Positions 4,099 to 60,067 of a DNA stretch of 64,000 nucleotides are shown in pieces. A model generated the notes under the pieces. The model worked only from the letters and a program-made list of their open reading frames with translations, was not told where the DNA came from and did not search any database. The stretch's first letter is position 1. The number at the start of each line of letters is the position of its first letter. The DNA is from Leucoraja ocellata. Taxonomy: Eukaryota. Position numbers and translations under genes: made by a program. The stretch spans positions 1,612,001 to 1,676,000 of the forward strand of contig JAWMAR010000200.1 in the NCBI GenBank assembly GCA_036785375.1, read 5' to 3'.

Positions 4099-4488
4099 CA
4101 AATTTTTGGGTCATGATTTGTGATTTCTGTAAGGGTGGATTTCCTTTACCCGAATGGCTGTGACATGGAGGTTGCCTGAAGACTTTAATTAAATGGATAT
4201 GAAAAGCATGGCTCGATGCCGGGAGCAGTGAGAGAAAGAATGACACCATCTCTATTTTCAATGCTCTCCTTTTCCATCTGTCAGCCACTAATTTCTGGTT
4301 CGTGTTTCGGCTGCCTGTAAGACGCCACATTTTGTTGGAGGGATTCTTGTCCATCCCAAATGGTAACATGCACGTTCTAGCCTCTTGTACCCTGGAGGAA
4401 TGAGAAATGTCAAAATATTTGGAGCTAGAATTGCATTAATGCAAGCAGCTTGACAGATAGTGTTGTATGATAGCCGCCTCCCCAACAG

Positions 4489-5052
4489 TGTGTCTCGTCC
4501 TTTTCTTCTTTTGTTGTTTATAGTATGTTGTTAAATGTATGTTTTGGTGTATCTTAGTTTTGCATTATGTGGGGGGGAAACTTTTTTCATCTCTTTCCTC
4601 GACGGAGATGCAACTTTTCCATATCGTATCCCCGTCCTTGCAGCCTAACATCGAGGAGCTGGCTTTGGGAGCTTCAACCACGGGAGCCTGCGGACTTAAT
4701 ATCGTGGTGCTCGCGGTCCCTTGGTTAGGGATCGACTTCGGGAGCTCCAACCGCAGGAGCTTCGATCGCCCCAACGTGGGAACTTCGATCGCCCTGTCGC
4801 GGGAGCTTTGATCGCCCGACTGCGGATGGTTCAACTGCCCCGACTGCGGATGGTTCAACTGCCCCGACCGCGGGAGAAAAGGAGGGAAGAAGAGAATATG
4901 TTATTGCCTTCCATCACAGTGGATGTTTCAATTAATTTTTATGGAGATGTGTGCCCTGTTGCTTTTTTGGTATGACTGTATGGCAAATCAAATTCCTTGT
5001 ATGTTTTTACATGCTTGGCTAATAAATTAATTACAATACAATACAGTACAAT
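4489..5052 (+). mobile_element. Non-autonomous GC-rich element with Rex1-type 3' tail
   Basis: T-rich leader, G-run+GAAACTT, hairpin 4601-4636, 24-bp tandem repeats at ~4815-4870; tail aaattccttgtatg...cttggctaataaa(tacaa)n resembles the Rex1 tail at ~21105-21145. Confidence 0.65.
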
Positions 5053-6621: not shown

Positions 6622-8790
6622 ATAATAATAATATATTTTATTGTCATTGCACATCAGTGCAACGAGATTTAGTATGTAGCTTCCAACCGATGTAAAAGAA
6701 AAGTAAAATAAATAAATAAGCTGTGTGACGTGACCATCCGAGGGAGACAGTCCATGGGGGTGGGGGGCACTCAGCAGGGCCGGTTCAGAGCCGCTATAGC
6801 TCTGGGAATAAAGCTGAGTCTGGAGGTTCGGGCGTAGAAGGTCTTGTAACGTCTGCCGGAGGGAAGTAGTTCAAACAGTCCGTTACAGGGGTGTGAGGAG
6901 TCTTTATGGATGCTGACGGCCTTCCTGAGGCACCGTGTGTGGTAGATGCCCTCCAAGGCTGGTAGCTGTGTCCCAATGATCCTCTGTGCTCTGTGGACGA
7001 CGCGCTGAAGAGCTCTCCTCTCCGCCTCAGTGCAGCTGAGATACCACACAGAGATGCCATACGTTAATATGCTCTCTGTGGTGCAGCGGTAGAAGGTTGT
7101 CAGCAGCTGTTGGGGCAGATCAGTCTTTTTTAATGTCCTCAGGAAGAACAGTCGTTGCTGTGCCTTCTTGACCAGCGCAGCGGTGTTGGTGGACCATGTG
7201 AGGTCCTCTGAAATGTGAGTGCCCAGAAACGTAAAGCTGGACACTCTCTCCACACTTTCCCCGTAAATGGAGATTGGGGCATATTCTCCATTATGGGACC
7301 TCCTGAAGTCAATAATCAGCTCCTTGGTCTTGGAGGTGTTTAGTGACAAGTTGTTACATGTGCACCAGTCCGCCAGGTTCTGCACCTCCGCTCTGTATTT
7401 TGTTTCATCACCGTTGGTGATCAGCCCAATCACTGTTGTGTTGTCTGCAAACTTCACGATGGTGTTGGTGTTGAATGCAGGAACACAGTCGTGAGTGAAG
7501 AGGGAGTAGAGCATGGGGCTTAGTACACAGCCCTGTGGTGTGCCGGTGCTCAGGTTGATAGTGGAGGACAGGTGCGGGCCCAGTCTCACTGCCTGCGGTC
7601 GCTCCGTCAGAAAGTTCAGGATCCAATCGCATATCGGCGAGCTGAGGCCTAGCTGGTGGAGTCTGGTGGTGAGCTTGGTGGGGATGACCGTATTGAATGC
7701 AGAACTATTGTATATGTAGAGATCTTCACATATGTGCCCAGTCTGTCCAGGTGAGTCAGGACAGTGTGAAGAGCCAGAGAGATGGCATCCTCTGTTGATC
7801 TATTTGCCCTGTATGCAAATTGATGAGAGTCCAGTGAGGCAGGGATGCTGGATTTGATATGGGAGAGGACCAGCCTTTCGAAGCACTTCATTGGGATTGG
7901 AGTTAGGGAACTGGGCGGTTGGTGACTTTAGACTTTTTCGGCACCGGCACTATGGTGGCTGTTTTCAGGCACTTGGGGACCGTTGCCAGAGATAGGGATT
8001 GATTGAAGATTCTCGTGAATACCTCCGCCAGCTGTACAGCACAGTCCTTTAGTACCCTTCCCTGGACTCCATCCGGGCCTGCAGCCCTGCGTAGATTAAT
8101 CCTACGCAGAGCGCACTGTACCTCCTGAGTGCTCAGTGTTAAGGCCTGTCCCTCCGCCATGGCCCGGGTTATTCTACTCCTGGTGGTGTTGCCAGTTTCG
8201 AAGCGGGCAAAGAAGGTGTTTAGTTCGTTGGCCAGTGTGATATCACCGTGGGGGCAGGCGGGGCTGCTCTTGTAGTCAGTGATGTCCCTGACACCCTGCC
8301 ACATGCTACTGGTGTCCACGGTATTGAAGTGGTCTTCCACCCTTTGCCTGTGGATGTCTTTGGCCTTTTTTATGCCTTTGTTCAGGTTCGACCTGGCCGC
8401 ACTGTAGGCAGAAGTGTCCCTGGATTTAAAGGCATTGTTGCGTGCCCTTAGCAGATTCTGAACCTCCTTGTTCATCCAGGGTTTCTGGTTTGGGAACATC
8501 TTTATTTGCTTGTCCACTGTGACAGTCTCCACACAGCAGTTGATGTAGGAGAGCACAGTGGATGTGTACTCCTCCAAGTCTACCTCTGTACCACTGGTTG
8601 CCTGTTGTGCAAACAGGTCCCAGTCGGTGCGATCAAAGCAGTCCTGGAGTTGTAGGGTGGCGTCCTCGGGCCAAATTTTGACCGTCCTTATTACAGGTTT
8701 GGTCTTGCGGATGAGGGGTTTGTATGCAGGCAGTAGAAACAGTGAGAGGTGATCAGATTGTCCCAAGGATGGGCAGGGGAGAGCTCTTAG
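6622..8790 (-). pseudogene. Rex1/Babar-clade non-LTR retrotransposon, 5' truncated, frameshifted ORF2 (EN C-terminus, RT, C-terminal domain)
   Basis: ORFs 7903-8808, 7649-7891 and 6771-7589 give [76 protein letters not shown]; 3' stem-loop + AATAAA + (TTA)n tail at ~6622-6665. Confidence 0.93.
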
Positions 8791-9387
8791 TGGCAATGGG
8801 TAAAGCAAATTAGATACGGGGCCACATTAAAGATTAAGTAATCATCCAAAATGGTGAAATAGTCTTGTTACTGTTACTTTATAAATCTTGAAAGGATAGA
8901 GAAGAGAACATGTGTGATGGAGGAAATGGAGAGGTTTGAATATGAGAACAGTTGTAAAAATTGATGAAGAGATGATGTAGTTGTCTTTAAATACTCAAGG
9001 ATGAGTTATTGCAGGCAATTACAGGTTTTTTCATCTTGCGCAAAATATTGGATTGAAGATACTGATTGCACGCGAAAGGGAAATAAATTAGGGTAAATCA
9101 TTTTTAAATCAGTGAACCCAGGTCACCGGAAAGTTTGTGGCATTAATCTCTTTTGATTCATTGAAATTAAACAGGTCTTTTAGAAACAAATTTTCAGGAT
9201 ATTGTAACAATGAGGTATGATTGGTGTACACTGCATGGCTGGAACTAGCAAGTGACCTAGGACATAACATTCCCTAAGTCGGGGTGAGGTGCTGGGATTG
9301 TTTCATGTTATACCCATGTCAAATGTAGTTCAGTTCAGTTTAATTTATTGACACGTGTACCGAGGCACAGTGAAAAGTATTTGTTCT

Positions 9388-9535
9388 ATATCTCTCTACA
9401 GCATCGTCTCCATCTCTCGTTTCTCTTTCCCGGGAGTTTCAGTCTGAAGAAGGGTCTTGATCCGAAACGTCACCCATTCCTTCTCCCCAGAGATGCTGCA
9501 TGTCCCACTGAGTTACTCCAGCTTTTTGTGTCTAT
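9388..9535 (+). mobile_element. Penelope-derived short element
   Basis: Same sequence as the 3' region of the Penelope copy at 34393-34600, on the opposite strand. Confidence 0.75.
9441..9475 (+). ncRNA. Minimal type I hammerhead ribozyme-like motif (intact core)
   Basis: agt-CTGAAGA-a-gggtc-tt-gatcc-GAAAC-GTC-accc: CUGANGA, stem II, GAAA, NUH triplet. Confidence 0.6.

Positions 9536-14056: not shown

Positions 14057-14124
<68 letters not shown>
14057..14124 (+). repeat. (ATCT)17 microsatellite at the 5' end of the Helitron-like array
   Basis: Perfect tetranucleotide run. Confidence 0.95.
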
Positions 14125-14126
<2 letters not shown>

Positions 14127-15461
14127 AAAACTCAAATCAGTCCGCCTGCAGTACGGATCCCTTCCTGCCTTTTGATTCGTTGATGGCTGCTCCTTCCTAT
14201 CAGCTTCAAACACACTTCGAAACAAAGTTGCAAGACAGGAACACTGAACTTTTCACTGCTGCAGCAGGCAGGGGAGGTGCCATTGGATTTTTTTTTAAAG
14301 AGGCAGGGCAGTGCTGGAATCTTACTTTTGAGAACGGCTTCAGTTCCATTGGAGGAGACGGGTGCATGGTGGAATATTGGGTTGGGGGATCACACCATTG
14401 GGGGAGCAGACCCAACGGGTCTGCACTTGGTCTAGTATATATATAAAAGTCTGTGGCTGCCGCCTGCCGTCCGGCTGCCAGCTGCCTTTCTTCCTTTTGA
14501 TTCACTGCTCCTTCCTGTCAGCTTCCAACACACTTCGAAACAAAGTTGCAAGACAGGAACACTGAACTTTTCACTGCTGCAGCAGGCAGGGAAGGTGCAA
14601 TTGAGGGAGGCAGGGAAGTGCTGGAAACTTACATTTGGCAACGGCTTCAGTTCCATTGGAGGAGACGGGTGCATGGTGGAATATTGGGTTGGAGGAATCA
14701 CACCATTGGGGGAGCAGACCCAACGGGTCTGCACTTGGTCTAGTTAATATATAAAACTCAAATCCATCCGACGTCCGCCTGCAGTACGGATCCCTTCCTG
14801 CCTTTTGATTCGTTGACGGCTGCTCCTTCCTATCAGCTTCCAACACACTTCGAAACAAAGTTGCAAGACAGGAACACTGAACTTTTCACTGCTGCAGCAG
14901 GCAGGGATTTTTTTTTAAAGAGGCAGGGCAGTGCTGGAATCTTACTTTTGAGAACGGTTTCAGTTCCATTGGAGGAGACGGGTGCATGGTGGAATATTGG
15001 GTTGAGGGATCACACCATTGGGTGAGCAGACCCAACGGGTCTGCACTTGGTCTAGTTATTATATAAAAGTCTGTGGCTGCCGCCTGCCGTCCATCCGTCC
15101 GGCTGCCAGCTGCCTTTCTTCCTTTTGATTCGCTGCTCCTTCCTATCAGCTTCCAACACACTTCAAAACAAAGTTGCAAGACAGGAACACTGAACTTTTC
15201 ACCTCAATGGGATATCACAGCAAGTGCTTCAACAGGAGGGGGAGGGCCAATTGGTATTGCAATTGGAACTGCTGCAGCAGGCAGGGGAGGTGCAATTGGA
15301 ATTTTTTTTCAATCCACTGCTGAGGGAGGCAGGGGAGTGCTGGAATCTTACATTTGGGAACGGCTTCAGTTCCGTTGGAGGAGACGGGTGCATGGTGGAA
15401 TATTGGGTTGGGGGATCACACCATTGGGGGAGCAGACCCAACGGGTCTGCACTTGGTCTAG
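14058..15461 (+). mobile_element. Tandem array of four non-autonomous Helitron-like units
   Basis: Starts A|TC; each unit ends with hairpin GCAGACCC-aac-GGGTCTGC, 7 nt, then CTAG|T (CTAG at 14432, 14740, 15052, 15458); no TIR or TSD. Confidence 0.82.
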
Positions 15462-16207
15462 TTTTAATATAAAGAGGGCTCTCTGCTATTTGATATGTTT
15501 GCGATGAAGCATCTCCTTTGTACTGAGGGTCGGAAGATTGCAGCGACCCTTGATCCTGTACATTGGGAATTATACTGTTTGGTTGTGCTATGTCAGGTTT
15601 TTTTTTTGTTGTAAGTGATTAAATGAATCGCAAACAAAAACCCTCAAATAATCTTGCAGTGTCACAAATGCAGTTTGTGATCCATCAGCCACTGGCTTTT
15701 CTTTATATTGCAATACATGTGATTTCTTGGAAAATGTACAAAAGCTATTTGTGTGGTCAGAAAGAAACACTAGAAAACATGAGATGTGAATTTATGGTTT
15801 TCTGCTCCGTTATATGGTTATATTTCTGTTGGATCATTTTCTCCTTGTTCTTGGCCTTTTATATTTTCTGTCAAGTGCAATTTTACATCTCGTTTCCCTT
15901 GTGGTGTGTCATTGTTTTCTTTCAACCCTCTGGTTCTTGAATAATGCAGTATTGTCAGTGATGGGTAAGTGCAGCAATTTGGCACCTACCCACCATTGTA
16001 AGAGTTGTATAATTTTCAACAATGGTGGTGGGAGTGAGTGAATTGTAGCGGATCAGCTGTCCATTATCTTGTTGCAGGTAAGAAAATCAGCAGGGGAGCA
16101 TTTTGGGCAAGCTATTCTCTGCTAATTTCCCACCCCCATCAAAATTGAAAGCTGCTCCTCCAGATTGACAATAAGTTCCATGCAAGAGTAATTTTGATTC
16201 ATTTCAA

Positions 16208-16524
16208 CAATGTTGGGGGAGTCCAGAACCAGGGGCCACAGTTTAAGAGTAAGGAGTAAGCCATTTAGAACAGAGACGAGGAAACACTTTTTCTCACAGA
16301 GAGTGGTGAGTCTGTGGAATTCTCTGCCTCAGAGGGCGGTGGAGGCAGGTTCTCTGGATGCTTTCAAGTGAGAGCTAGATAGGGCTCTTAAAAATAGCAG
16401 AGTCAGGGGATATGGGGCGAAGGCAGGAACGGGGTACTGATTGGGGATGATCAGCCATGATCACATTGAATGGCGGTGCTGGCTCGAGGGGCCAAATGAC
16501 CTACTCCTGCACCTATTGTCTATT
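16208..16524 (+). mobile_element. CR1/HER1-type LINE 3' end
   Basis: MLGESRTRGHSLRV..FFSQRVVSLWNSLPQRAVEAGSL plus ctattgtctatt tail. Confidence 0.9.
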
Positions 16525-20417: not shown

Positions 20418-21178
20418 AATTGATAGTAGACTTTTGGAGAACTCCCCCTCCCCTCCCCCCACTCACTATCAACAACACCACAGTCACATCTTTGGCGTAT
20501 TTTAAGTTCCTTGGAACCATCATCTCCAAGGACCTGAAATGGGGTGCCACCATCGACTCCACAGTCAAATGGCCCAACAGAGGATGTACTTCCTGCGGCA
20601 GCTGAGGAAACACAATCTGCCGCAGGCAATAATGGTCCAATTCTATACTGCCATCGTAGAGTCTGGCCTCACCTTCTCCATCATGGTCTGGTTTGGCTCA
20701 GCCACCAAGCACGACATCCGGAGGCTGCAGCGAATCGTCCCATCAGCTGAGATGGTTGTTGGCTGCAACCTTCCCCTCATTGACGAACTGTACACTGCAA
20801 GGGCCAGGAAACGAGCGGGTAAGATCATCTCTGACCCCTCTCACCCTGGCCACAAAATCTTTGAAGCACTTCCCTCTGGAAGGCGACTTCGTACTGTCAG
20901 AGGCGCCAGAGCCAGACATAAAAACAGCTTTTGTTTTCCACGGGTAGTAGCTCTACTCAATAACCAAAAGTCTGTAGCCTCCTTTTGCTCTGGGATTTTA
21001 TTTCATTCACATGTCTAAACTGTAATGTTTTATTATTAATGTTTAATGTGTCATTCTTAATTGTTACTGTATGTTGTGTTGCTACTCATGAGCGGTGCAC
21101 CAAGGCAAATTCCTTGTGTATATATATATATACTTGGCCAATAAACTTATTCATTCATTAATTAATTAATTCATTCAG
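20418..21178 (+). pseudogene. Rex1/Babar LINE 3' fragment (second family)
   Basis: LIVDF..FKFLGTIISKDLKW, frameshift, AQQRMYFLRQL..DPSHPGH..LPSGRRLR; tail ttggccaataaa(cttatt/catt)n. Confidence 0.9.
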
Positions 21179-21618: not shown

Positions 21619-21779
21619 TAGGCCATTGTTCTAATTCAAATGAATGAACCACATTTAAAACTTCCATGCTTACACTTATTTCTCAGGTACAGGTGCACAA
21701 CCTTTTATCCGAAGATCCAAATAACGAAAACCTCCGAATAGCGACATTTTTTCAGTCCTTGAAAAAAGGTCCTTGAAAA

Positions 21780-23633
21780 CGTTCACGGAGGGCGGCCCGC
21801 AGAGGTGACAGAGGAACCTCCGGTCGGTCCTGGAAGAAAGGGGAACTAAATCCCCATCCATAAAAGAGAAGGTGAGGGTATATTGTGCGGGAGGGTTAAT
21901 AATTGACAATATGCTGCTGTCTGGGAGCTGCGGGCAGGGAGCTGCAGATTGTCGCTCCCTTCAGTTTCACCCCACCTACACCCCTCTGCTTCCCGGCCAT
22001 GTGTGTGACCCCTTCCCTCCCCTCTCCAGCTCCCCGCCCATTGCACCGACGTGGGGGCTTTGCACTGTCTTCACGTCGGCAATGCCAGTCACCGGAGACG
22101 TCAGGACCAACGGGACACCGACCCCCAGGCCCACTGCAAGCACGGAGATCCCAGATCAGCAACTCCAGCCGAGCCCCGCTCCAACTCCAGAGGGGCAGAA
22201 ACTGATGGTGCGCAAGGTGCGTCTTGTTCTTGAGGTCGCGCAACTCGGGCTGTGGGCGAACTGCCACTTGTCGCCGTAGCGGCCCATCGGGGAGCGGATT
22301 CCTCTGGAGTTGGGGGTGGGGGGGAGGGGGAGGGGGGGTATTGTGCTGTTTGATCGCCCCCTGCTATCCCAGGAACAGGGAAACAGGACGTTCACTGAGG
22401 GCGGCCCGCAGAGGTGACAGCGGAACCTCCGGTCGGTCCTCGACGAAAGGGGAACTAAATCCCCATCCATAAAAGAGAAGGTGAGGGTACATTGACCGGG
22501 AGAGTACGAATCCCAAGACAAAGTTGAGTGAGCGTTCACCGAGGGTGGCCCGCAGAGGTAACAGCGGAACCTCAGGTCGGTCCTGGAAGAAAGGGGAACT
22601 AAATCCCCATCCATAAAAGAGAAGGTGAGGGTATATTGCGCGGGAGGGTTAATAATTGACAATATGCTGCTGTCTGCCCGCTGAGTTAAAAAAATTCCCA
22701 CGGTAGACTCACGATACACAGTGTATCGTGAGTCTTGCGTGGGAACTTTTTTCTCAGCGGGCAGGGAGCTGCAGATTGTCGCTCCCTTCAGTTTCACCCC
22801 ACCTACACCCCTCTGCTTCCCGGCCATGTGTGTGACCCCTTCCCTCCCCTCTCCAGCTCCCCGCCCATTGCACCGGCGTGGGGGCTTTGCACTGTCTTCA
22901 CGTCGGCAATGCCAGTCACCGGAGACGTCAGGACCAACGGGACACCGGCCCCCAGGCCCACTGCAAGCACGGAGATCCCAGAGACCCACAGCCAGCAGCA
23001 GCCCAGCCCCGTTCCAACTCCAGAGGAAAACTGCAAACTAGCGGGAGACATCGGGACCACCAGAAGCCGTTCCTCGATGGGCCGCTACGGCGACAAGTGG
23101 CAGTTCGCCCACAGCCCGAGCTGTGCCCCCTCATCGGGACACCGACCCCCAGGCCCACTGCAAGCACGGAGATCCCAGATCAGCAACTCCAGCCCAGCCC
23201 CACTCCAACTCCAGAGGGGCAGAAACTGATGGTGCGCAAGGTGCGTCTTGTTCTCGGGCTGTGAGCGAACTGCCACTTGTCGCCGTAGCGGCCCATCGGG
23301 GAGCGGATTCCTCTGGAGTTGGGGGTGGGGGGGAGGGGGAGGGGGGTATTGTGCTGTTTGATCGCCCCCTGCTATCCTAGGGACAGGGAGACAGGACGTT
23401 CACCGAGGGCGGCCCGCAGAGGTGACAGCGGAACCTCCGGTCGGTCCTCGACGAAAGGGGAACTAAATCCCCATTCATAAAAGAGAAGGTGAGGGTACAT
23501 TGACCGGGAGAGTAGGAATCCCAAGACAAAGTTGAGTGAGCGTTCACCGAGGGTGGCCCGCAGAGGTGACAGCGGAACCTCGGATCGGTCCTGGAAGAAA
23601 GGGGAACTAAAAAGAGAAGTGGAGGGTATATTG
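21780..23633 (+). repeat. Internal repeats of the TIR element: ~105-bp unit x5 within a larger duplicated block
   Basis: cgttcac.gaggg.ggcccgcagaggt...ggggaactaaa starts at 21780, 22389, 22533, 23397 and 23541. Confidence 0.9.
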
Positions 23634-23931
23634 CGCGGGAGGGTATATCGCCTACCTGGAAGAAACCAGACATTTTTTCCAGGATGTCGTCTGCGCACCA
23701 AAGCTCACGTTTGGCGTCTCTGCTGCACACGGATATAAGAGTGTGAAAATGTCGCCTTAGGCCGCCTTAGGGCATGAAGCCCCGCTAGGGTGACATGAGT
23801 GCGGGAGGTGATTCAATGCTGCGGTCACATTTACAAATTCAGGAATTCATTCAACACACTGCATTTTATACAGACATTTATTCTGCAAGAAAAAAACTAC
23901 ACTGAAGACTCAAACTCGCGACCGAGGAATT

Positions 23932-23999
23932 GCCGGGATCAAGGCGCAAACTCGCGACCTTGCGGATATGAGCCGGGCACTCTACCACTGAGCCAGCCA
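23932..23999 (-). pseudogene. tRNA-like (CAT anticodon) remnant inside the TIR element
   Basis: Minus strand TGGCTCAGTGGTAGAG (A box), CGG-CTCATAT-CCG anticodon arm, GGTCGCGAGTTTG (degenerate B box/T arm); acceptor stem not intact. Confidence 0.5.
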
Positions 24000-24244
24000 T
24001 TAAAATCTACGCTAAAAAATTTCCATTCCGAAGACCGACAAATTCCAAATTACGAAAAGTGTCTGGTCCCAAGGCTGTCGGATAAAAGGTTGTGCACCTG
24101 TATATTTAGAATATTTTTTAAATAGTGTTTTTTAATCGTTGTATGCCTGTTTGCACACCATTTATTCTTGTTGGTGTTGATGACAATTAAACAGACTTTC
24201 AGAGCTCTCTTAATGTTGACACAAGGTTGTCATATGAAAGTAAG

Positions 24245-24576: not shown

Positions 24577-24610
24577 AGTCTGAAGAAGGGTCTCGACTTG
24601 AAACGTCACC
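24577..24610 (+). ncRNA. Minimal hammerhead ribozyme-like motif; the host repeat resumes at ~24882-24990
   Basis: agt-CTGAAGA-a-gggtc-tc-gactt-GAAAC-GTC-acc. Confidence 0.5.
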
Positions 24611-24880
24611 TCAATATCAATATCAGTTGTATTAGTCACTTACACATAAAGTGCAAGTGAAATGAATTTGTCAGCAATGGTACAATGAAAAAAGAACACA
24701 CAAAAACACAATAAAAATGTAACACAAACATCCACCACAGCATTCATCACAGTGGTGGAAGGCGCACAATTTGGCCAGTCCTCCTGCATTTTCCCCCGTG
24801 GTCTGGACCTCAACCCTCCGCAGCCGCTGCTGCGGGCGTCCAGATGTGTAGACATGGTAAAGTCCAGATAAAGAGACCCA
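24611..24880 (-). mobile_element. Truncated Rex1-tailed non-autonomous element inserted into the hammerhead repeat
   Basis: Minus strand gccttccaccactgtgatg...gtggtggatg, then atttcacttgcactttatgtgtaagtgactaata(gatatt)n. Confidence 0.6.
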
Positions 24881-27184: not shown

Positions 27185-27405
27185 TCAGAGAGTTGTGAGT
27201 CTGTGGAATTCTCTGCCTCAGAGGGTGGTGGAGGCCTGTTCTCTGGATGCTTTCAAGAGAGAGCTTGATAGCGCTCTTAAGGATATGGGGATATGGGGAA
27301 AAGGCAGGAACAGGGTACTGATTGGGGATGATCAGCCATGATCACATTGAATGGCAGTGCTGGCTCGAAGGGCCGAATTGCCTACTCCAGCACCTATTGT
27401 CTATT
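27185..27405 (+). mobile_element. CR1-type LINE 3' end
   Basis: QRVVSLWNSLPQRVVE plus ctattgtctatt tail. Confidence 0.88.
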
Positions 27406-28514
27406 GCCACACTAAGCTATCTGCTATTATGTTACCCATTGGGATTTTACACTTGATTGTATTCACCAATAACGTTTAGCTCAGTGGCAATTGTCGATTA
27501 TAATAAGCACCTACTGAGTTCCATTTTCGGATGCCTGTTTGTATTCCTACTGAGAGTTTAATAATCATTTGTTCCAAATTCACAAATGACAGTACACAAA
27601 TGTGGAGGGTAAAATAGGGAATGCTAATAGTAGAAATAAAAGTTAGAAGCAGAATTAAATGTACGTAATTCTGTTCTGGTGGTCAACGTAATGATGCTTA
27701 TTCTTTGGCTTTTCCCGAAATTACATGGTGAGTTTGGATTCCCTAATTACCACAACAATAAAGCTATGCATGTTTCCACAGGTGAGGTCCCCGATGAATA
27801 GAGGGTAACCAGTGTTATTCCTTTGTTTAAGAATGGAAGTAGGGAATAATCCAGGAAATTATATGTCTGTGAGCATCACATCAGTGCCAGAGAAACTTTT
27901 GGAGAAGATTCTTAGTGATAGGATTTACTTGCAAATGGACAAACAGGTGCTTATTTGTGATGGGTATTATGGCTTTGTGGAGAGAGATTTTGTCTAAAAC
28001 ACTTGATTATGGTTTTTGAGGAAGTGACGGGGATAATTGACGAGTGTAGGACAGTGGATGTTATCTCTATGGGTTTAGGTAAGGCATTTGACAAGGTCCC
28101 ATACAGTAGGCTGATCTGGAAGATTAAGATTCATGGGAGAGGATTGTATTCAGGCAGATTTGGTTCATGATTGGGGAAGGAATGGAGGGCTAATGGGCCC
28201 GTATCTGTGCAGTACTTTTCTACGGTCCAAGAGTATATCATAATTTCATGGTGACTTGGTTATTGAGATTCCAAATTGGCTTGGCCTTAGAAGAAAGAGG
28301 GGATATATATTATATATATATATATAACCTATCAAAGCAGGCTTTTGATCAGTTGCAATTATAGGTGGTGAAATACGAGACGGTGTTTAATGTAGAGAAA
28401 GGTGAGTTGTTGCACTTTGGGATATCAGATGTCAGTAGAAGATATACATCGACTGGCAGGACTTAGGATCATTAATAAACAAAGGGATCTTGGTGTCCCA
28501 GTCCATAGCTCTTT

Positions 28515-29265
28515 GATTAGATTAGATTAGATTAGATTAGATTAGATTCGTTTATTGTCATTCAGACCTTTCAGTCTGAACGAAATTTTGTTTCCCTGCA
28601 GTCATACATATAATTTAAAAAATGACAAAAACACACAATCAACACAAATTTAACAGAGGGAGAACAAAGAGGGAAGAGACAGAGAACTTAAGATTTTGCC
28701 TTCCACCACAGTGAGGAGGTGTTTGGTGAACTCACTGTGGTGGAAGGCAAAATCTTAAGTTCTCTGTCTCTTCCCTCTTTGTTCTCCCTCTGCGCCGAGG
28801 CGACGGCTCAAACTCCGCGGGTGGTCGCTGCCTCCGCCACAGCTCCAGGACCGAGTCGGGTCTCCGCTGCTGCTGCTGCTGCCGCCGCCGCCGCCACAGC
28901 TCCATGGCCGAGCCGGGTCCCCGATGCTGCTGCCGCCGCTACAGCTTCGGGGCCGAGTCGGGTCTCCGCCGCTGCTGCTGCCGCCGCCACAGCTCCAGGA
29001 CCGAGTCGGGCCTCCGCCGCTGCTGCCACAGCTCCGATGCCGCCAGCTCCGCCATTAGGCCTCGGCGCAGACGGAGACGGGGATGGGGAATACAACCGAA
29101 GAAAAAGTCGCATCCCCCGAAGGAAGAGACCAAAGCAAGTTTCTCCCACCCCACCCACACACATATACAACTTAATAAAACAAAATTAACTAAAACATGA
29201 CAAGGAACAAAAGAAAAAAAACAGACGGACTGCAGGTGGGCCACAGCTGTTAAGCCAGCGCCACC
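28515..29265 (-). mobile_element. Non-autonomous GC-rich Rex1-tailed element with internal GCC/GCT minisatellite and a 62-bp perfect inverted repeat
   Basis: (TCTAA)n tail, atttcgttcagactgaaaggtctgaatgacaataaa, 5' hairpin at 29085-29118. Confidence 0.7.
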
Positions 29266-29815
29266 AACATATGTGGAAAAGAACGTGAAAAAGGCATATG
29301 ACATATTGGTAGGGACAATTAACATGAGGGTCAGGAAGTCATGTTGCAGCTGTATAAAACTTTGATAAGCCCACATTTAAGATATTGTGCAGTACTTGTC
29401 GATCCACTCCAAGAAACATGTGGAGGCTTTGCAGAAAACCAGGATGCTGCCTGGATTAGAGTATTAGCTATCGGGAGAGGTTAAACTAACTTGAATTGTT
29501 TTCTCTGGAGTGTCAGAGAAAAGACCTGATAGAAATATATAAAATTGTGAGGGACTTAGATAGGGTAGAAAATCAGAGTTTTATTCCAGACTCAATATGT
29601 CAATCACTAGTTTGCATAGCTTTAAGATGTAAGGAGAGAAGTTTAAATTGGTGTGTGGGGCAATTATATTACAAAGAGCTCGGGTAAGTGCCTAGAATGC
29701 TTTGCCAGTGGTGGGAGTAGAGGAGCGGTTGGTAGTAATGGCAATTAACAGGCATTTAGACAATCAAATGAACATGGAGAGGACCGTGTTCAGACAGATG
29801 TGGTTGATTTGGCTC

Positions 29816-36465: not shown

Positions 36466-36748
36466 CATTTGGCTGCTCAACTATGTACAGCCTGCACATG
36501 GGATCAATCCATTTAGTTCCATAACACTGCACTCACCCCAATGCTCTGCGACTTCTTTCCTTTCATATCATTGTCCAGTTCCTCTTTGAATCTCCCTCCC
36601 GCAGTATAATTGGCAGTGGGATCAAAATCCCATGTAACAATGTAAAAATGTTTTTTTAGCACCAATTCAGCTTAGAGTTATGGAATCATACAGCGTGGAA
36701 ACAGACCCTTCGGCCCAACTTGCCCATACCGACCATCGACACTAGTTC

Positions 36749-37631
36749 GGTAGGCGGCGCGGCTCTGGCCAGCAGCGGCCTCTGCAGCCTGTCCGCGTTT
36801 TTATTATTTTTTGTCTGTGTTTCTGTGTAGTTTTTGTTATTTTATGTTGGGGTGTGTGTGTGGGGGGGTGGGGGTAGGGTGGGAGGGGGGGGGAAACTTT
36901 TTGAATCTCTCCCTGCACTGAGACCCGACCTTTTCTCGTCGGGTCTCAGTCGTCGCTGAGGCCGTAACGAGGAGCGGCCTCCAACAGGAAGAGACCGGGG
37001 ACTCAGGTGTCGACTCACCTCACCGTCGTGGAGCTGGCCAAGTCCGGAGCGGTGGAGGAGCGCTGCTGCTGCTGATGCTGTTGCTGCTGCTGATGCTGTT
37101 GCTGCTGCTGCTGCTGCTGCTGTCGGAGAGTCGGAGGCTCTCTACAGGTCTGTGGACGACGGCGCCGAGCCCACGGCTCCCTAGAGAGAGACCGCTTTTC
37201 GGGGCTTCTGCGGCGGCGACTTCTCCCGCCCGAGTTGCGGGGTCGAAGAGCTCCTGGAGCGGGGCCTAGCACCGCTGCCCCGCGCGGCTGGAATGGCCGC
37301 GGACTCTGCGAGCGCACACTGGGGGCACCAACACCAAGACCCGGTGTGCGACCTCGCACCACCTGGCGTGGCTTTAATGGCCGCGGGACAATCGCCATCG
37401 CCAGCCGGGGGCTATGACTTTGACTCTGACATCGGGGGGGGGGGAGAGTGCAGTGGAGAGATACGTTTATTTGGCCTCCATCACAGTTATGTGATGGATG
37501 TTTAAGTTAAATGTAATTATGTTGTGTCTGGGGTCTATTTGTGTGTTATGTATGGCTGCAGAAACGGCATTTCGTTTGGACCTCCAGGGGTCCAAATGAC
37601 AAATAAATTGATTCTGATTCTGATTCTGATT
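36749..37631 (+). mobile_element. Full-length-looking non-autonomous Rex1-tailed element (~880 bp) with CTG tract
   Basis: Head ggcggcgc, T-rich tract, G-run+GAAACTT, perfect 13-bp hairpin 36917-36950, tail atttcgtttggacc..ggtccaaatgacaaataaa(tgattc)n. Confidence 0.72.
37062..37122 (+). repeat. Interrupted (CTG)~20 trinucleotide tract
   Basis: gctgctgctgctgatgctgttgctg... Confidence 0.9.
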
Positions 37632-37969
37632 CCCACCTGCCCGCATTTGGCTCATATGCTTCTAAACCTTTCCTTTCCATCTACTTGTCCAAATGTCTTT
37701 TAAATGTTGGTTTACTTCCTGCCTCAACTACTTTATCTGGCAGCTCGTTCCTCCATATACTCACCACCATCTGTGTGAAAAAGTTGCCCCTCGGTTTCCT
37801 ATAACATTTTTCCCTTGCACCTTAAACCTCTGTCCTCTGGTTCTTGGCAAGAAACCATTCACTTTCATTTGATTAGTACATCAAAAAAAGAATAATATGT
37901 TGTTCAATAATTAGTATTGAAATTGATCGCATTGTTCAATATTCAGTATTCAAGAGAGAGATATATAAC

Positions 37970-38315
37970 TCGCAGGGCTAATGGAATCAAGAGATATGGT
38001 GAGAAAGCAGGAAACGGGGTACTGATTTTGGATGTACACAAAAAAGCTGGAGAAACTCAGCGGGTGCAGCAGCATCTATGGAGCGAAGAAAATAGGCAAC
38101 GTTTCGGCCCGAAACGTTGCCTATTTCCTTCGCTCCATAGATGCTGCTGCACCCGCTGAGTTTCTCCAGCTTTTTTGTGTACCTTCGATTCTCCAGCATC
38201 TGCAATTCCTTCTTAAATACTGATTTTGGATGATTAGTCACCATCATATTGAATGGGGGTGCTGGCTTGAAGGGCCGAATGTCCTACTCCTGCACCTATT
38301 TTCTATGTTTCTATT
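37970..38315 (+). mobile_element. CR1-type 3' tail split by a palindromic insertion
   Basis: GIKRYGEKAG..tactgattttggatg|..atcatattgaatgg..ttctatgtttctat. Confidence 0.8.
38035..38217. mobile_element. Palindromic Penelope-derived element with 15-bp TSD
   Basis: ~74-bp arms (38034-38182, one mismatch); TACTGATTTTGGATG at 38020-38034 and 38218-38232. Confidence 0.88.
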
Positions 38316-44559: not shown

Positions 44560-45362
44560 TTGTTTGTTTTTCAATCTTTTTTAAATTTTTTGTCAGTTTT
44601 AAAGTTTGTGTTGGAGGTTTCTTTCGTTTTTCTATGTGGGGAGGGGGGTAGGGTAAGGGGGAAACCTTTTCCCAGTAACTTCCTGGCGAGGACGCGGCTA
44701 TTCTCCGAGTCGTGTCCTCGCCCCCCCCTCGCGGCCTACCACCTGGATTGGTGCGGCCTTTCCTGCCGAGGACAGGACCAGAGCTTCAGCAGCTGCGGCG
44801 CAGTGCAGGATACATCGCGGAGCTGGCTATGCCTCACCTGGGGTCACCGTTTTGGAGCTCTGGAGTGCTGGGCCGCTGCTCCAACATTGCAGAGCTGTGG
44901 TTTACAAAGCTTTCAGCGCGGCTGATGCTGACTTCAGCATCGCGGAGTCCTGGGGCCCTTTGCCGAGGGCCGCCAGCGTTCAATCTCCGTCCAGCGCGGC
45001 CTGTGGACTTTGGGAGCCGCGGATTTCAGTAGGAGGTGGCCGACTCGGATGTCCAGGCTGCTGAAGACGTCCTCCAGTCCCGACGTCGGACTTTCCATCA
45101 CCCCAACGAGCGGGCCTGAACATCGGGCCGCCCGTAGTGGCCACATCGGGGGTTCGGGAACCCTCCAACCACGGGAGGACAGCAGAGGATGACTGAATGT
45201 TGGAGCCTTCCTTCACAGTGCGAAAACTTTGATCCCGCTGTGTGGGGATGTTTGTGTTAAGACTTTGTGTTATGTGCTCTTTATTATACGTATGGCTGTA
45301 GGGCGACCACACATTTCACTGTACCAATTGGTACATGCGACAAATAAATGTATCTTGTATCT
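44560..45362 (+). mobile_element. Non-autonomous GC-rich Rex1-tailed element inside a CR1 3' tail
   Basis: T-rich tract, G-run+GAAACCTT, 15-bp hairpin 44685-44722, tail atttcactgtaccaattggtacatgcgacaaataaa(tgtatc)n. Confidence 0.7.
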
Positions 45363-45767
45363 TATACTGTCCAAATGTCTTTTAAATGGTGTTACAATAT
45401 CAACTAAGCCCGTCTATCTGCTGGCAGAGGTTTCTTTCTCTCTCTCCCTCTCTCCTTTCAGTTTTAAGGGCAGTGAGCTTCTACTTGAAGTGGACGACTG
45501 GCTGATGGAGAAAATGGCATCGCTGAGGCCAGCTGATCACTGGCTCCCCCTAGATCACAGTATGTGATAATTAGATTAAACTGTGGAGATGTGCCAAAAT
45601 GTCTTTGTGATATATTTGTTTTTAACAAATAACTGGGCATTAATGCCAGAGCAAACCAATAGCTCACCTATCTATAGATACGTCTGTGACAAAAGTAAGT
45701 GCCATTTGTACTTACAAACAAGTATCCATTGTTGAACCTTAGAGTGTCTACTATACATCTAGATTGT

Positions 45768-45852: not shown

Positions 45853-46930
45853 AGATCAGCTAAATGAAGAGCTACATTTGGCTTCCTGCACATACGTGAA
45901 TGTTCATTTTCAGCTTAGCAAATAGCAAGATGAGACGTAAACAACCGCAGGAGATGCAAAGTAGTTGACTTTGATTATTTGAGGAGACTGGTAAAAGATG
46001 GTAAATGTATTGAATTTTATCTGGTTAAATGTTGTTGAATTTGCCTGGCGATTTGAGCTTAAACAATGATCTGAAAGTATTTTTTTCCTCTATTGAAGTT
46101 GAAGCCGATATGTTCTGAATGAAGAAACGGAGTACAGGAATAAAGAATAATCTTGACTTCACCTTGCCAAACTGGGATCAATTCCATCTGCCCAATGGTA
46201 TTTTTTCTCATTGTCAGTCAAAGTTAATATTGGGTGGTTATGAGCCCCATTGTCATTGATTACAATCATCTCTGTGCAATCCCAGGTCCTTGATTTTGTT
46301 TCTTATGGTTTTGGAATTTGTTTTTAAATGATTGCAACTTCTGCACATGCAACTGATCGATGATTCTGAAGATATGGAAAATATTTGGCTGTCAGAACTC
46401 ACAAAATGATTGCATAATCATGTTAGATGCATATCATCAATCTATGGGCCACAAAACACACTTTTGCAGCGAACATATTAGTAGATTCAATCCAAACCAT
46501 ATAATTACATTTCCTCCTATGTGGCAGGAGTGAAGATATTTTAATTTCATGTCCTCCCAATGGGTAGAAAAAAGCATACTGGAAAAAGTGAATTTGGCAA
46601 ATCAAAAGGTAGCACATTTATTACATTTTGTTAAAGAAACGATCTCATAATATTCTAGAATTGGCACAAGCTGAATGAATGATTTCTTCTAACTTGAGAA
46701 TACTGTGCTTCAGTACAGCATTTTTAAGCAGTGGCCAGAAACTGTGACCTAGCTTTCATTACAATGGGCTTGCTGCCTAAACAAATCTGGAAGGGCAAAT
46801 CTTTTACTGAGGTAAGTGGTCTTGGAATCAAGTGACAGGGCCCTAACAATTGGCAGGGTCTCAAACGAAGAAGTGGAATCACAGGAGACACAAGGAATTG
46901 CAGATGTTTGTATCTCGTGTAGAATACAAA

Positions 46931-47157
46931 ATCTGTGGAATTCTCTGCTACAGAAGGTAGTTGAGGCCAGTTCATTGGCTATATTTAAGAGGGAGTTAGA
47001 TGTGGCCCTTGTGGCTAAAGGGATCAGGGGGTATGGAGAGAAGGCAGGTATAGGATACTGAGTTAGATGATCAGCCATGATCATATTGAATGGCAGTGCA
47101 GGCTCGAAGGGCCGAATGGCCTACTCCTGCACCTATTTTCTATGCTTCTATGTTTCT
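46931..47157 (+). mobile_element. CR1-type 3' end inserted in a Penelope-derived repeat (46884-47210)
   Basis: NLWNSLLQKVVEASSLAIFKRELDVAL..GIRGYGEKAG; host acaaaa|atgttggtgtaactcaac. Confidence 0.85.
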
Positions 47158-52361: not shown

Positions 52362-52975
52362 TTAGACAATAGACAATAGATGCAGGAATAGGCCATTAGG
52401 CCCTTTGAGCCAGCACCACCATTCAATGTGATCATGACTGATCTTCCCCAATCAGTACCCCGTTCCTGCCTTCTCCCCATATCCCCCTGACTCCGCTATT
52501 TTTAAGAGCCTCTTGAAAGTATCCAGAGAACCTGCCTCCACCGCCCTCTGAGGTAGAGAATTCCAGACTCACAACTCTCTGTGAGAAAAAGTGTTTCCTC
52601 GTCTCCGTTCTAAATGGCTTACCCCTTAATTTTAAACTGTGGTCCCTGGTTCTGGACTACCCCGACATCGGGAACATGTTTCCTGCCTCTAGCATGTCCA
52701 AACCCTTAATAATCTTCTATGTGTCGATAAGGTACCCTCTCATCCTTCTAAACTCCAGAGTGTACAAGCCCAGCCGATCCATTCTCTCAGCATATGACAG
52801 TCCCACCATCCCGGGAATTAACCTTGTAAACCGACGCTGCACTCCCTCAATAGCAAGAATGTCCTTCCTCAAATTAGGGGACCAAAACTGCACACAATAC
52901 TCCAGGTGTGGTCTCACTAGGGCCCTATACAACTGCAGAAGGACCTCTTTGCTCCTATACTCAACTCTTCTCTTG
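52362..52975 (-). pseudogene. CR1/HER1-type LINE 3' ~600 bp, well preserved
   Basis: VEYRSKEVLLQLYRALVRPHLEYCVQFWSP..VQRRFTRLIPGM..RRMRG. Confidence 0.93.
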
Positions 52976-53151: not shown

Positions 53152-53645
53152 GATCAGAATCAGAATCGTTTATTGTCATTTGAACATAAGTTCTAACGAA
53201 ATTGCGCTTCTGCAGTCATCATCAAACAAAAAAAAAACACAGAATGAACACAATTCGACACAAAACATCCATCGCAGTGAATCCCCAAACACCACCTCAC
53301 TGTGATGAAGGCAAGAGTCTTATCTCTTCCCTGTTCTCTGTGCCCATTCCTTTCCCGCCGCATTCAAGCAGCCAAACTGCTGGATGGAGCCGATTGAGGC
53401 TCCTGATGTTAGATGTTAGAGCCCCCCCGGCAGGCAATGGTAAGTCCCGCTGCCTTTTAAGCCTCGCTGGTCAATGTTAGGCTCCGCTCCGCATCAAATT
53501 AAACCCCCTGATTCGGGAGGGTGAAGTTTGCCGTTGCAGGAGTTCCGAAAAGTGGTCTCCCACCAGGGACCCGCGAGCTCCCGATGTTACCATCCACAGG
53601 GCCTGCGGCCGAAGCCTCCGAGCTGCCGACAGGCGCCGCCATCTT
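53152..53645 (-). mobile_element. Internally deleted Rex1-tailed non-autonomous element
   Basis: Head aagatggcggcgc, GC-rich body, catcacagtgag..tcactgcgatgg hairpin, tail atttcg..tgacaataaa(gattct)n. Confidence 0.65.
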
Positions 53646-54597
53646 GTCCTTACCTTTGTATTACCCTTAATACACGCACCTTTAATTTTCTGATTAAGGT
53701 CTATATTATAAATACTTGGGGACCTGTGGACAGTACCCGTGAGGTTTTCTGCCCCATGTTATCTTTAGCCGTATCAAAATTAAACTCCTTGAATTTTTGA
53801 CCAATGACTCTTTATGATGCCTTTATTCCCTTTATAATCGTAACTCTTGCCCTTCCTTTTCAATTTTGACCATCTCTTCTAATCTTTAGACAGTGTGTCT
53901 ATTAAAGAAAATCTACCCACCATTTCCTGGTTAAACCACTATAAAAAGTTATGATCCACCCTCCATATTAATGAGGAAATACTTGTACTGACAAGATGCA
54001 CAACAAGGGGGTGTTATGGCTCAATGGGGAGCACTTATCTTGCATTTGGAAGCTGATGGGTTTTGTTCCACAGCATTGCATTGACATTTTGAGGCAGTAC
54101 TTAGTGTTACCTGCTGTGTTTCCTCCTTCTCCAAAATAACCATTCATTGAAACATGTCTCATCATGAGTGACCTACAATCATGAAAGATCCTATGGTATG
54201 GTAGTCTTTTTATTTTATTTTTGGAAATATTTGTGTTATAGACTTGTACGGGGTAAGAAAAATATAAGGACAAATGGGAATGAACAATGAACATGAACTT
54301 ACATTTATTGTCCCAGATTCAAATCTCCACTTAATATATCAAGATGATCTAAAATCACAATGCCCAGGTTTATGTTCCTCACATACTCCGTTTAGGCTTG
54401 GAGAAACTAACTGCTGTGTATATTTCACCTAATTTAGCACCACTTTGCCGCTTAGCTGTTTTGCCTTTGAGCTGTTTTGTCGCACACAGGTTTACAGTTA
54501 GCCTCTTAAAGGTACAATCCATCTGCTTGTTTCCTCTCTGTCGCTATTTCCTTCAGATGTTTGTATTTGAACATGATCTTTGATTCACCAGCCTGTT

Positions 54598-59522: not shown

Positions 59523-59796
59523 TTTAAACATCCTATCCAGCTCCCTAATGTTTCCCTCATTCCATCACTGACTCACCATTTCCTGGAAACAATATGTTAC
59601 TCGTGGCGTCCTTAACCTGCCTGCAATGTCCACCATAAAATGGACTGCAGGTGCACGAGACTGCTACATTAAACCCTTAAGTTCTTCTTCAATTTGTCCA
59701 CTATACTGATGTGGAAACAAATCAGCAATTCTTCATTCTTAGAATGATCCCAACCCGAGCATCACCTTTCCAAGTTCTCCAGAGATGCTGCCTGAC

Positions 59797-60040
59797 ATAG
59801 AACCATAGAAAAATAGATGCAGGAGTAGTCCATTCGGCCATTCCAGCCAGCTCCGCCATTCAATATGATCATAGCTGATCATTTGAAATCAGTACCCCGT
59901 TCCTGCCTTTTACCCATATCCCTTGATTCCTTTAACCCAAAGAGCTAAATCTATCTCTCTCTTGAAAACATCCGGTGAATTGACCTCCACTGTCTTCTGT
60001 GGCAGAGAATTCCACAGATTCACAACTCTCTGGGTGAAAA
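59797..60040 (-). mobile_element. CR1-type 3' end
   Basis: FTQRVVNLWNSLPQKTVE plus tail. Confidence 0.85.
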
Positions 60041-60067
60041 ACAAAAGTGTTATCCCAGCACTTGGCA

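Follow-up and report, generated by a model that had tools for sequence, protein, structure and literature searches.

Rex1-ended non-coding elements with an internal hairpin, likely folded as RNA, in Leucoraja ocellata

A repeat-rich window with six related elements

The locus is a window of 64 kb from Leucoraja ocellata (contig JAWMAR010000200.1), a stretch of vertebrate DNA rich in repeats. We analyzed it together with 14 Rex1 loci, taken from metagenome contigs of sources other than this genome, and with four public runs, two of DNA (X1 and X4) and two of RNA (X21 and X23). The window holds six members of one element family (E1 to E6), where an earlier note, made from the sequence alone, had counted four; two of the six, E5 and E6, do not carry the hairpin (H1) that was the subject of that note. 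Its description of a non-coding mobile family with Rex1-type tails and without a tRNA, 5S or 7SL head was borne out. The members, their parts and the Rex1-type LINEs of the window are listed below, in window positions.

4472–5047, plus strand: E1, decayed, 5′ end approximate, with T-tract, G-run, GAAAC, H1, a 23/24-bp tandem body, a collapsed 3′ hairpin and a Rex1-type tail
4601–4636, plus strand: H1 of E1, with the better fold on the antisense strand
36749–37632, plus strand: E2, full length, inside another repeat, with about 3 nt of microhomology but otherwise no target duplication
36749–36850, plus strand: Rex1-like 5′ end of E2 (GGCGGCGC..GCAGC, no ATG) and T-rich tract
36862–36916, plus strand: G-run of E2 (G-quadruplex pattern), GAAAC and pyrimidine spacer
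36917–36950, plus strand: H1 of E2, perfect here, with a bulged G in most family copies
36958–36981, plus strand: second hairpin (H2) of E2, which includes GCC(G)TA; fold z −3.4, variants keep pairing
37447–37462, plus strand: purine tract of E2, complementary to spacer positions 36905–36919, a candidate long-range helix
37478–37497, plus strand: shortened 3′ hairpin (H3) of E2
37550–37632, plus strand: Rex1-type tail of E2, with terminal stem-loop, AATAAA and (TGATTC)4
44563–45366, plus strand: E3, 5′-truncated in the T-tract, with a tail of a different Rex1 type
44685–44722, 44733–44758 and about 45207–45249, plus strand: H1, H2 and H3 of E3
28515–29266, minus strand: E4, full length, with H1 at 29085–29118 and a 48-bp tandem body
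28654–28792, no strand assigned: H3 region of E4, turned into a perfect inverted repeat (62 bp) around an inverted loop of 15 nt
53153–53650, minus strand: E5, to all appearance complete, starting at an exact TISU/YY1 motif (53635–53646), without T-tract, G-run or H1
24615–24870, minus strand: E6, 5′-truncated, H3 and tail only
6625–8826, minus strand: Rex1-type LINE, 5′-truncated and frameshifted, with RVT_1 and PF09004 and the tail design of the elements
20506–21175, plus strand: a second Rex1-type LINE, present as a short 3′ fragment whose tail, by eye, is similar to that of E1

The elements have no conserved ORF: reading frames differ between copies, and a tblastn comparison with 120 Rex1 proteins gave no match below E 0.07. 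Their bodies are CpG-rich. The 3′ 510 nt of E2 match E5 (E2 positions 365–876 to E5 positions 12–498; 62% identity, E 5e-25), so that E2 reads as a head module placed before an E5-like element. Named relatives of the window's Rex1-type protein occur in bony fish (42–54% identity).

Across 36690–37060, depth in the two DNA runs (at 80% likeness) falls at 36742–54 and rises from 36755, and hundreds of DNA-run records join the left flank of E2 directly to its right flank without the insert. Because of this trough and of the flank-joining records, we read E2 as an insert in another repeat. E3 sits in a copy of the same repeat, and its junction seems to lack about 90 bp of the host sequence; the flanks of E4 and E5 look like a decayed LINE, presumably CR1. 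Single variants in the element head are carried by 47–93 contigs per run (summed depth over E2 does not equal copy number), and the Rex1-ended family is dispersed and of high copy number. Pattern scans found no further element copies in viral contigs or in metagenome contigs, and Rex1 protein scans gave no confirmed locus in viral contigs or genome contigs.

Several other repeats lie in the window. Positions 14057–15473 contain (ATCT)17 and, after it, some four degenerate tandem units of 313 bp. A GC-rich modular repeat at 21688–24102, with internal direct and inverted blocks, is bounded by a 25-bp perfect inverted repeat and looks like a non-autonomous DNA transposon; it contains two 13-bp hairpins with G-U pairs (at 22046 and 22873). 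A SINE-like high-copy repeat of 220–320 bp, which we take to be of the HE1 type of sharks and rays, occurs at 16210–16524, 27186–27406, 46930–47153, 52366–52668 and 59792–60041. Repeats with a hammerhead-like CTGA-n-GA...GAAAC core, presumably of Penelope type, are found at 24580–24610, at 9435–9474, at about 15 similar sites and in a palindrome at 38034–38185; an Rfam search reports no hammerhead in them.

Rex1-like starts and Rex1-type tails

The family had been described as having no recognizable head, and this does not hold: the head is the 5′ end of Rex1. The pattern GGCGGCGC-N5-14-GCAGC has two matches in the window, one where E2 begins and one where E5 begins (0.01 expected), and, as a short match, it lies at the ORF start in 4 of the 14 Rex1 loci; it was composed after both sets had been viewed, it misses E1 and E4, and the Rex1 loci come from outside this genome. 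The E4 head aligns to the E2 head (E 4e-9), and E5 has the same letter as the start of Rex1 locus L009 at 23 of 27 positions. The Rex1 loci checked (n = 3) each hold a single long ORF of 963–1009 aa, and Rex1 proteins mostly start MAAR..AAA, followed by a hydrophobic stretch encoded by T-rich DNA. The 12-letter TISU/YY1 motif, for which we used the mammalian consensus given in the consulted part of PMC3177215, is exact at the starts of E5 and L009 and has one mismatch in L004 and L006. Its ATG is lost in E2 and E4. A leader peptide encoded by the head was rejected because the reading frames of these two elements differ. A predicted hairpin in the Rex1-like head shows no significant fold (z −1.9 to +0.7). 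The changes 36762 G>A and 36769 C>T, which fall in a 3-bp stem of the head, occur at matching frequencies in the public runs.

Full-length Rex1 proteins (P0002, P0026, P0047, P0048 and others; L009:38–130) have a hydrophobic, signal-peptide-like start encoded by a T-rich tract, and the non-coding elements retain this same tract. The signal-peptide-like start of Rex1 may be the by-product of a DNA or RNA signal and not a targeting peptide.

The tails follow one design, a terminal stem-loop, AATAAA and a microsatellite, seen likewise in the Rex1 copies of the window and in loci L002 and L013. By alignment and motif, the elements have tail motifs and layout in common with the window Rex1 copies, L002, L011 and L013; BLAST gave no significant tail match between elements and Rex1. 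The terminal stem-loop is predicted in E1–E4, the fold of E5 is ambiguous, and AATAAA is unmatched in E6. Tails fall into at least three types, and all six members carry H3, or a remnant of it, before the Rex1-type tail. The 14 Rex1 loci, which stem from other sources, yielded neither H3 nor the module of G-run, GAAAC and H1.

As judged from their sequence, the elements are likely bipartite, non-autonomous Rex1 derivatives and not headless SINEs, and we hold their identity as short non-coding mobile elements with a Rex1-like start and a Rex1-type tail with high confidence. A true polymerase III SINE, with a head taken from an unrecognized small RNA, would have parallels in SINEs with GC-rich heads of unknown origin (noted in the sections drawn on here of PMC5786205 and PMC7245038) and in one tRNA SINE of Nematostella tabulated with a Rex1 tail (PMC3747384). 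Here this origin is highly improbable: a B box is present in 0 of 6 elements, many runs of at least four T fall within the first 150 nt of E1–E4, and no tRNA or Rfam head is detected where the head matches the 5′ end of Rex1.

The internal hairpin and its pairing

The letters and coordinates reported for the four H1 stems are correct (4601–4636, 36917–36950, 44685–44722 and, on the minus strand, 29085–29118), as is the layout around them: T-tract, G-run, GAAAC(T/C)T, C/T spacer and GCC(G)TA are all present in the four elements. E4 reads GAAACTTG, a small departure from the earlier wording. The stems of E1, E2, E3 and E4 measure 13, 13, 15 and 13 bp, with pyrimidine-rich loops of 10, 8, 8 and 8 nt. 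Two parts of the first description need correction. The hairpin is internal, 130–170 nt downstream of the element start, and not a 5′ hairpin; and its primary sequences, said to differ widely, are homologous across the four copies, with a mean column identity of 72% and 9 invariant columns. GAAAC is invariant as well and lies outside any stem. A single degenerate pattern, composed after the sites had been seen, matches exactly the four H1 sites (0.00 expected). A covariance model built from the four stems detected neither an extra copy within the window (next best E 0.1) nor a match among the 14 Rex1 loci (best E 0.45).

On the sense strand, H1 of each copy beats 300 of 300 dinucleotide shuffles (z −3.9 to −6.7). 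Sense and antisense energies are −11.6 and −15.3 kcal/mol in E1, −24.2 and −25.5 in E2, −28.9 and −20.4 in E3, and −18.9 and −6.6 in E4; sense folding is better in two of the four (E3 and E4), equal in E2 and worse in E1, the copy at 4601, which our hairpin scan of the window detects on the antisense strand only. The proposed restriction of working G-U wobbles to the sense strand survives only in part. The H1 alignment does contain six G-U cells, three of them a single wobble common to three of the four copies, and E4 carries four G-U pairs. E1, however, has one G-U pair and three internal A/C mismatches, which become pairs on the antisense strand, and a general sense-strand wobble bias fails there.

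The central claim, that pairing is kept while sequence changes, is supported by two-sided changes at 6 of the 14 H1 pairs and by T-A and G-C alleles in the public runs. Over the 14-pair structure 91% of cells pair, and the two-sided count was reached by 11 of 500 shuffles (slid controls gave 0–1), in a set of only four sequences sharing descent, where relatedness alone can beat shuffles; covariation among so few relatives only suggests selection on RNA. Among the 40 variant rows listed of 119, 7 of 8 predicted-pair variants keep sense pairing if the partner changes are linked. In H1, 36919 T>G and the partner change 36948 A>C would convert a T-A to a G-C pair; their frequencies match only roughly (21/13, 31/29, 49/83 and 58/74% in X1, X4, X23 and X21). 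An extra G behind 36919, carried in 51–86% across the public runs, would create a bulge where the H1 of E2 itself is perfect, and 36950 T>G (8–40%) breaks the end pair.

Could the same pairing have arisen at the DNA level? H1 would then be a quasi-palindrome whose arms were kept paired by template switching in replication or reverse transcription, RNA structure being under no selection, and the family offers a hairpin of just this kind. The H3 arms of E4 form a 62-bp perfect inverted repeat around a 15-nt loop that reads as the E5 loop backwards; taken from the assembly as it stands, with an assembly artefact as the alternative source, it looks like the clear trace of a template switch or a fold-back. 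The portion of PMC8794818 cited here describes inversion of the loop and multiple compensatory changes as signatures of template switching. H3 is also shortened in E1 and E2, and the H1 of these two elements folds as well or better on the antisense strand. Template switching should nevertheless leave perfect Watson-Crick arms, whereas H1 keeps a G-U pair in three of four copies and a bulge in most family copies. Its stem (13–15 bp) and loop (8–10 nt) lengths are constant, all four of its loops are rich in pyrimidines on the sense strand and none of the four is inverted, and on the antisense strand the H1 of E4 barely folds (z −0.8). DNA palindrome turnover, which the earlier note had named as the alternative that would overturn an RNA function, is thus weakened for H1, where we consider it unlikely, and seen at H3 of E4. 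In our judgment, RNA-level selection on H1 is reasonably probable.

The H3 arms of E3, E4 and E5 contain CACAGTG and its complement, a motif that we take to be the immune recombination heptamer. As no nonamer is visible by eye and E6 differs, its presence is probably due to chance.

H1 is not the only candidate RNA structure. GCC(G)TA forms the 5′ arm of H2 (z −3.4 in E2 and −2.0 in E3), in which variants of the public runs favor the sense strand: A>G and C>T (the latter a CpG change) produce wobbles and T>C produces a C-G pair. The pyrimidine spacer can also pair with the purine tract before H3. This helix, first spotted in E2 (15 bp, matched by 2 of 1000 shuffles), passes independently in E4 alone (9 of 1000); it is weak in E1 (152 of 1000) and absent from E3 (365 of 1000).

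The sequence upstream of H1 invites a reading as DNA, in which T-tract, G-run and GAAAC would form an internal polymerase II promoter that replaced a lost YY1 site, the hairpin being a part of it or a passenger. The module is present in E1–E4, which lack an intact TISU/YY1 motif (E3 being 5′-truncated), and absent from E5, which has one; a G-quadruplex pattern fits the G-runs in two of four; and the invariance of GAAAC outside any stem, like the CpG-rich bodies, would suit such a promoter. A promoter gives no reason, however, for two-sided changes in a stem of 13–15 bp, and we find this reading quite improbable as stated. It is compatible with H1 as a folded RNA, and may hold for the G-run and GAAAC, not for H1.

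A self-cleaving ribozyme in the H1 region, of the sort that R2, RTE and Ingi elements have at their 5′ ends, deserves even less weight, although clades that make bipartite derivatives often bear 5′ ribozymes according to the part of the 2018 survey used here (PMC5786205). A loose HDV descriptor matched 3 of 5 elements, a higher rate than among shuffles (3–10 of 60 for each). GAAAC resembles what we take to be half of a hammerhead core, which also speaks for this reading. Yet Rfam returned no ribozyme at E values up to 5–10, its only hits being sub-threshold matches of miRNA type to palindromes; the CUGANGA..GAAA hammerhead core occurs in 0 of 5 elements; and the HDV-like matches lie at non-homologous places, one of them requiring H1 to be unfolded and none cutting at the element start. 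Inserted copies, moreover, retain the 130–170 nt upstream of H1 that a cut there would remove. The ribozyme suggested at first is accordingly very hard to sustain: there is no Rfam match, no hammerhead core with GAAA and no homologous HDV-like fold.

Two further candidates were rejected. A −1 frameshift signal (GGGAAAC plus stem) would have a spacer of about 19–24 nt, E4 is without the heptamer that −1 frameshifting calls for, and an ORF is lacking. A pseudoknot of the G-run with the H1 loop leaves, by inspection, linkers of 0–1 nt.

Probable transcription and mobilization, and known relatives

Reads of the family are present in both RNA runs, amounting in X23 to 1–4% of the depth of the flanking repeat. 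Neither run showed a discrete sense transcript or a noteworthy sharp RNA start (a single site, with 5 molecules). X21 shows a 20:1 minus-strand excess with poly-T loose ends at the T-tract, and X23 looks unstranded. Because of these poly-T ends, we take the excess in X21 to reflect oligo-dT priming at the A-tracts of antisense copies carried by host transcripts; it counts neither for nor against transcription of the element.

On balance, we favor the reading that these Rex1-ended elements likely owe their copying to the Rex1 reverse transcriptase acting in trans and that H1 is a conserved internal stem, likely a folded RNA and not a ribozyme. The elements begin like Rex1, end in a Rex1-type tail, insert into repeats without clear target duplication, are present at high copy number and include 5′-truncated copies. 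Transcription would be by RNA polymerase II and would start at the Rex1-like 5′ end, since the T runs after the head would stop polymerase III and since the TISU/YY1 motif is exact in E5 and in one Rex1 locus. The transcript would fold into H1, H2, H3 and the tail stem-loop; if known LINE biology applies, the Rex1 protein would bind the tail stem-loop and copy the RNA at a DNA nick. H1, H2 and perhaps the helix of spacer and purine tract would be kept by selection among source copies. H1 looks accessory, because E5, seen as one copy in the window, appears to have moved without it. We tentatively suggest that H1 might serve as a protein-bound or stabilizing stem-loop through which a larger share of the untranslated RNA lasts long enough to encounter the Rex1 enzyme. 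More speculatively still, the family could belong to an old and undescribed class of polymerase II retroposons that parasitizes several Rex1 lineages, swapping Rex1 heads and tails around a folded RNA scaffold of its own made of H1, H2, H3 and a long-range helix from which the variable body would loop out.

The closest known counterparts are the bipartite ORF-less LINEs, represented in the sections used here of the 2018 survey by RIME/Ingi, NARTc/L1Tc, Bov-A, RTESINE1/2, WALLSI3 and Vingi-1_EE derivatives (PMC5786205). They resemble our elements in joining LINE 5′ and 3′ ends without an ORF, and a further likeness may lie in probable polymerase II transcription and mobilization in trans. In those sections, RTE, Ingi, Vingi and R2 are the only clades listed with such derivatives, and whether this restriction reflects sampling or a transcription requirement is left open (PMC5786205). 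The partner here is Rex1, outside the four listed clades, and no 5′ ribozyme was found. The structured middle, moreover, was not found in the Rex1 loci checked, which come from outside this genome, so the elements do not look like a simple internal deletion.

With the Rex1/Babar non-LTR retrotransposons, as introduced in the cited part of PMC6274825, the elements share a 5′ start motif followed by a T-rich tract and a tail of stem-loop, AATAAA and microsatellite. They differ in lacking an endonuclease/RT ORF and in carrying the G-run, GAAAC, H1 and H3, none of which was found in the 14 Rex1 loci. SINEs with central domains (CORE, V, Deu and Ceph) and SINE2-5_NV with its Rex1-24_NV tail, as described in PMC5786205 and PMC3747384, likewise combine a common body with differing LINE tails and a 3′ stem-loop of stringent type; the likeness is one of description only, and our elements have no tRNA, 5S or 7SL head and no B box. 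The TISU/YY1 element matches E5 and L009 over 12 letters exactly, but it is described for mammalian host genes in the parts cited of PMC2518114 and PMC3177215; a role in Rex1 is putative, and the ATG core is lost in E2 and E4.

A search of the literature, mostly at the level of titles and abstract openings, returned no description of the Rex1-ended element family; uncurated repeat libraries probably hold these sequences under the Rex-Babar label.

If the elements do form such a retroposon class, they would correspond, at the level of structure, to the conserved SINE domains, and Rex1 would become a fifth LINE clade to spawn bipartite elements. A high-copy Rex1 case without a ribozyme would also test whether the known restriction stems from sampling or from a transcription requirement. 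A hairpin that looks selected, beside one that template switching appears to have reshaped, would make a natural test of how compensatory changes arise. The family marks the cis parts that Rex1 would need, a start motif and a tail stem-loop, and its significance lies in transposon biology, not in a new host function.
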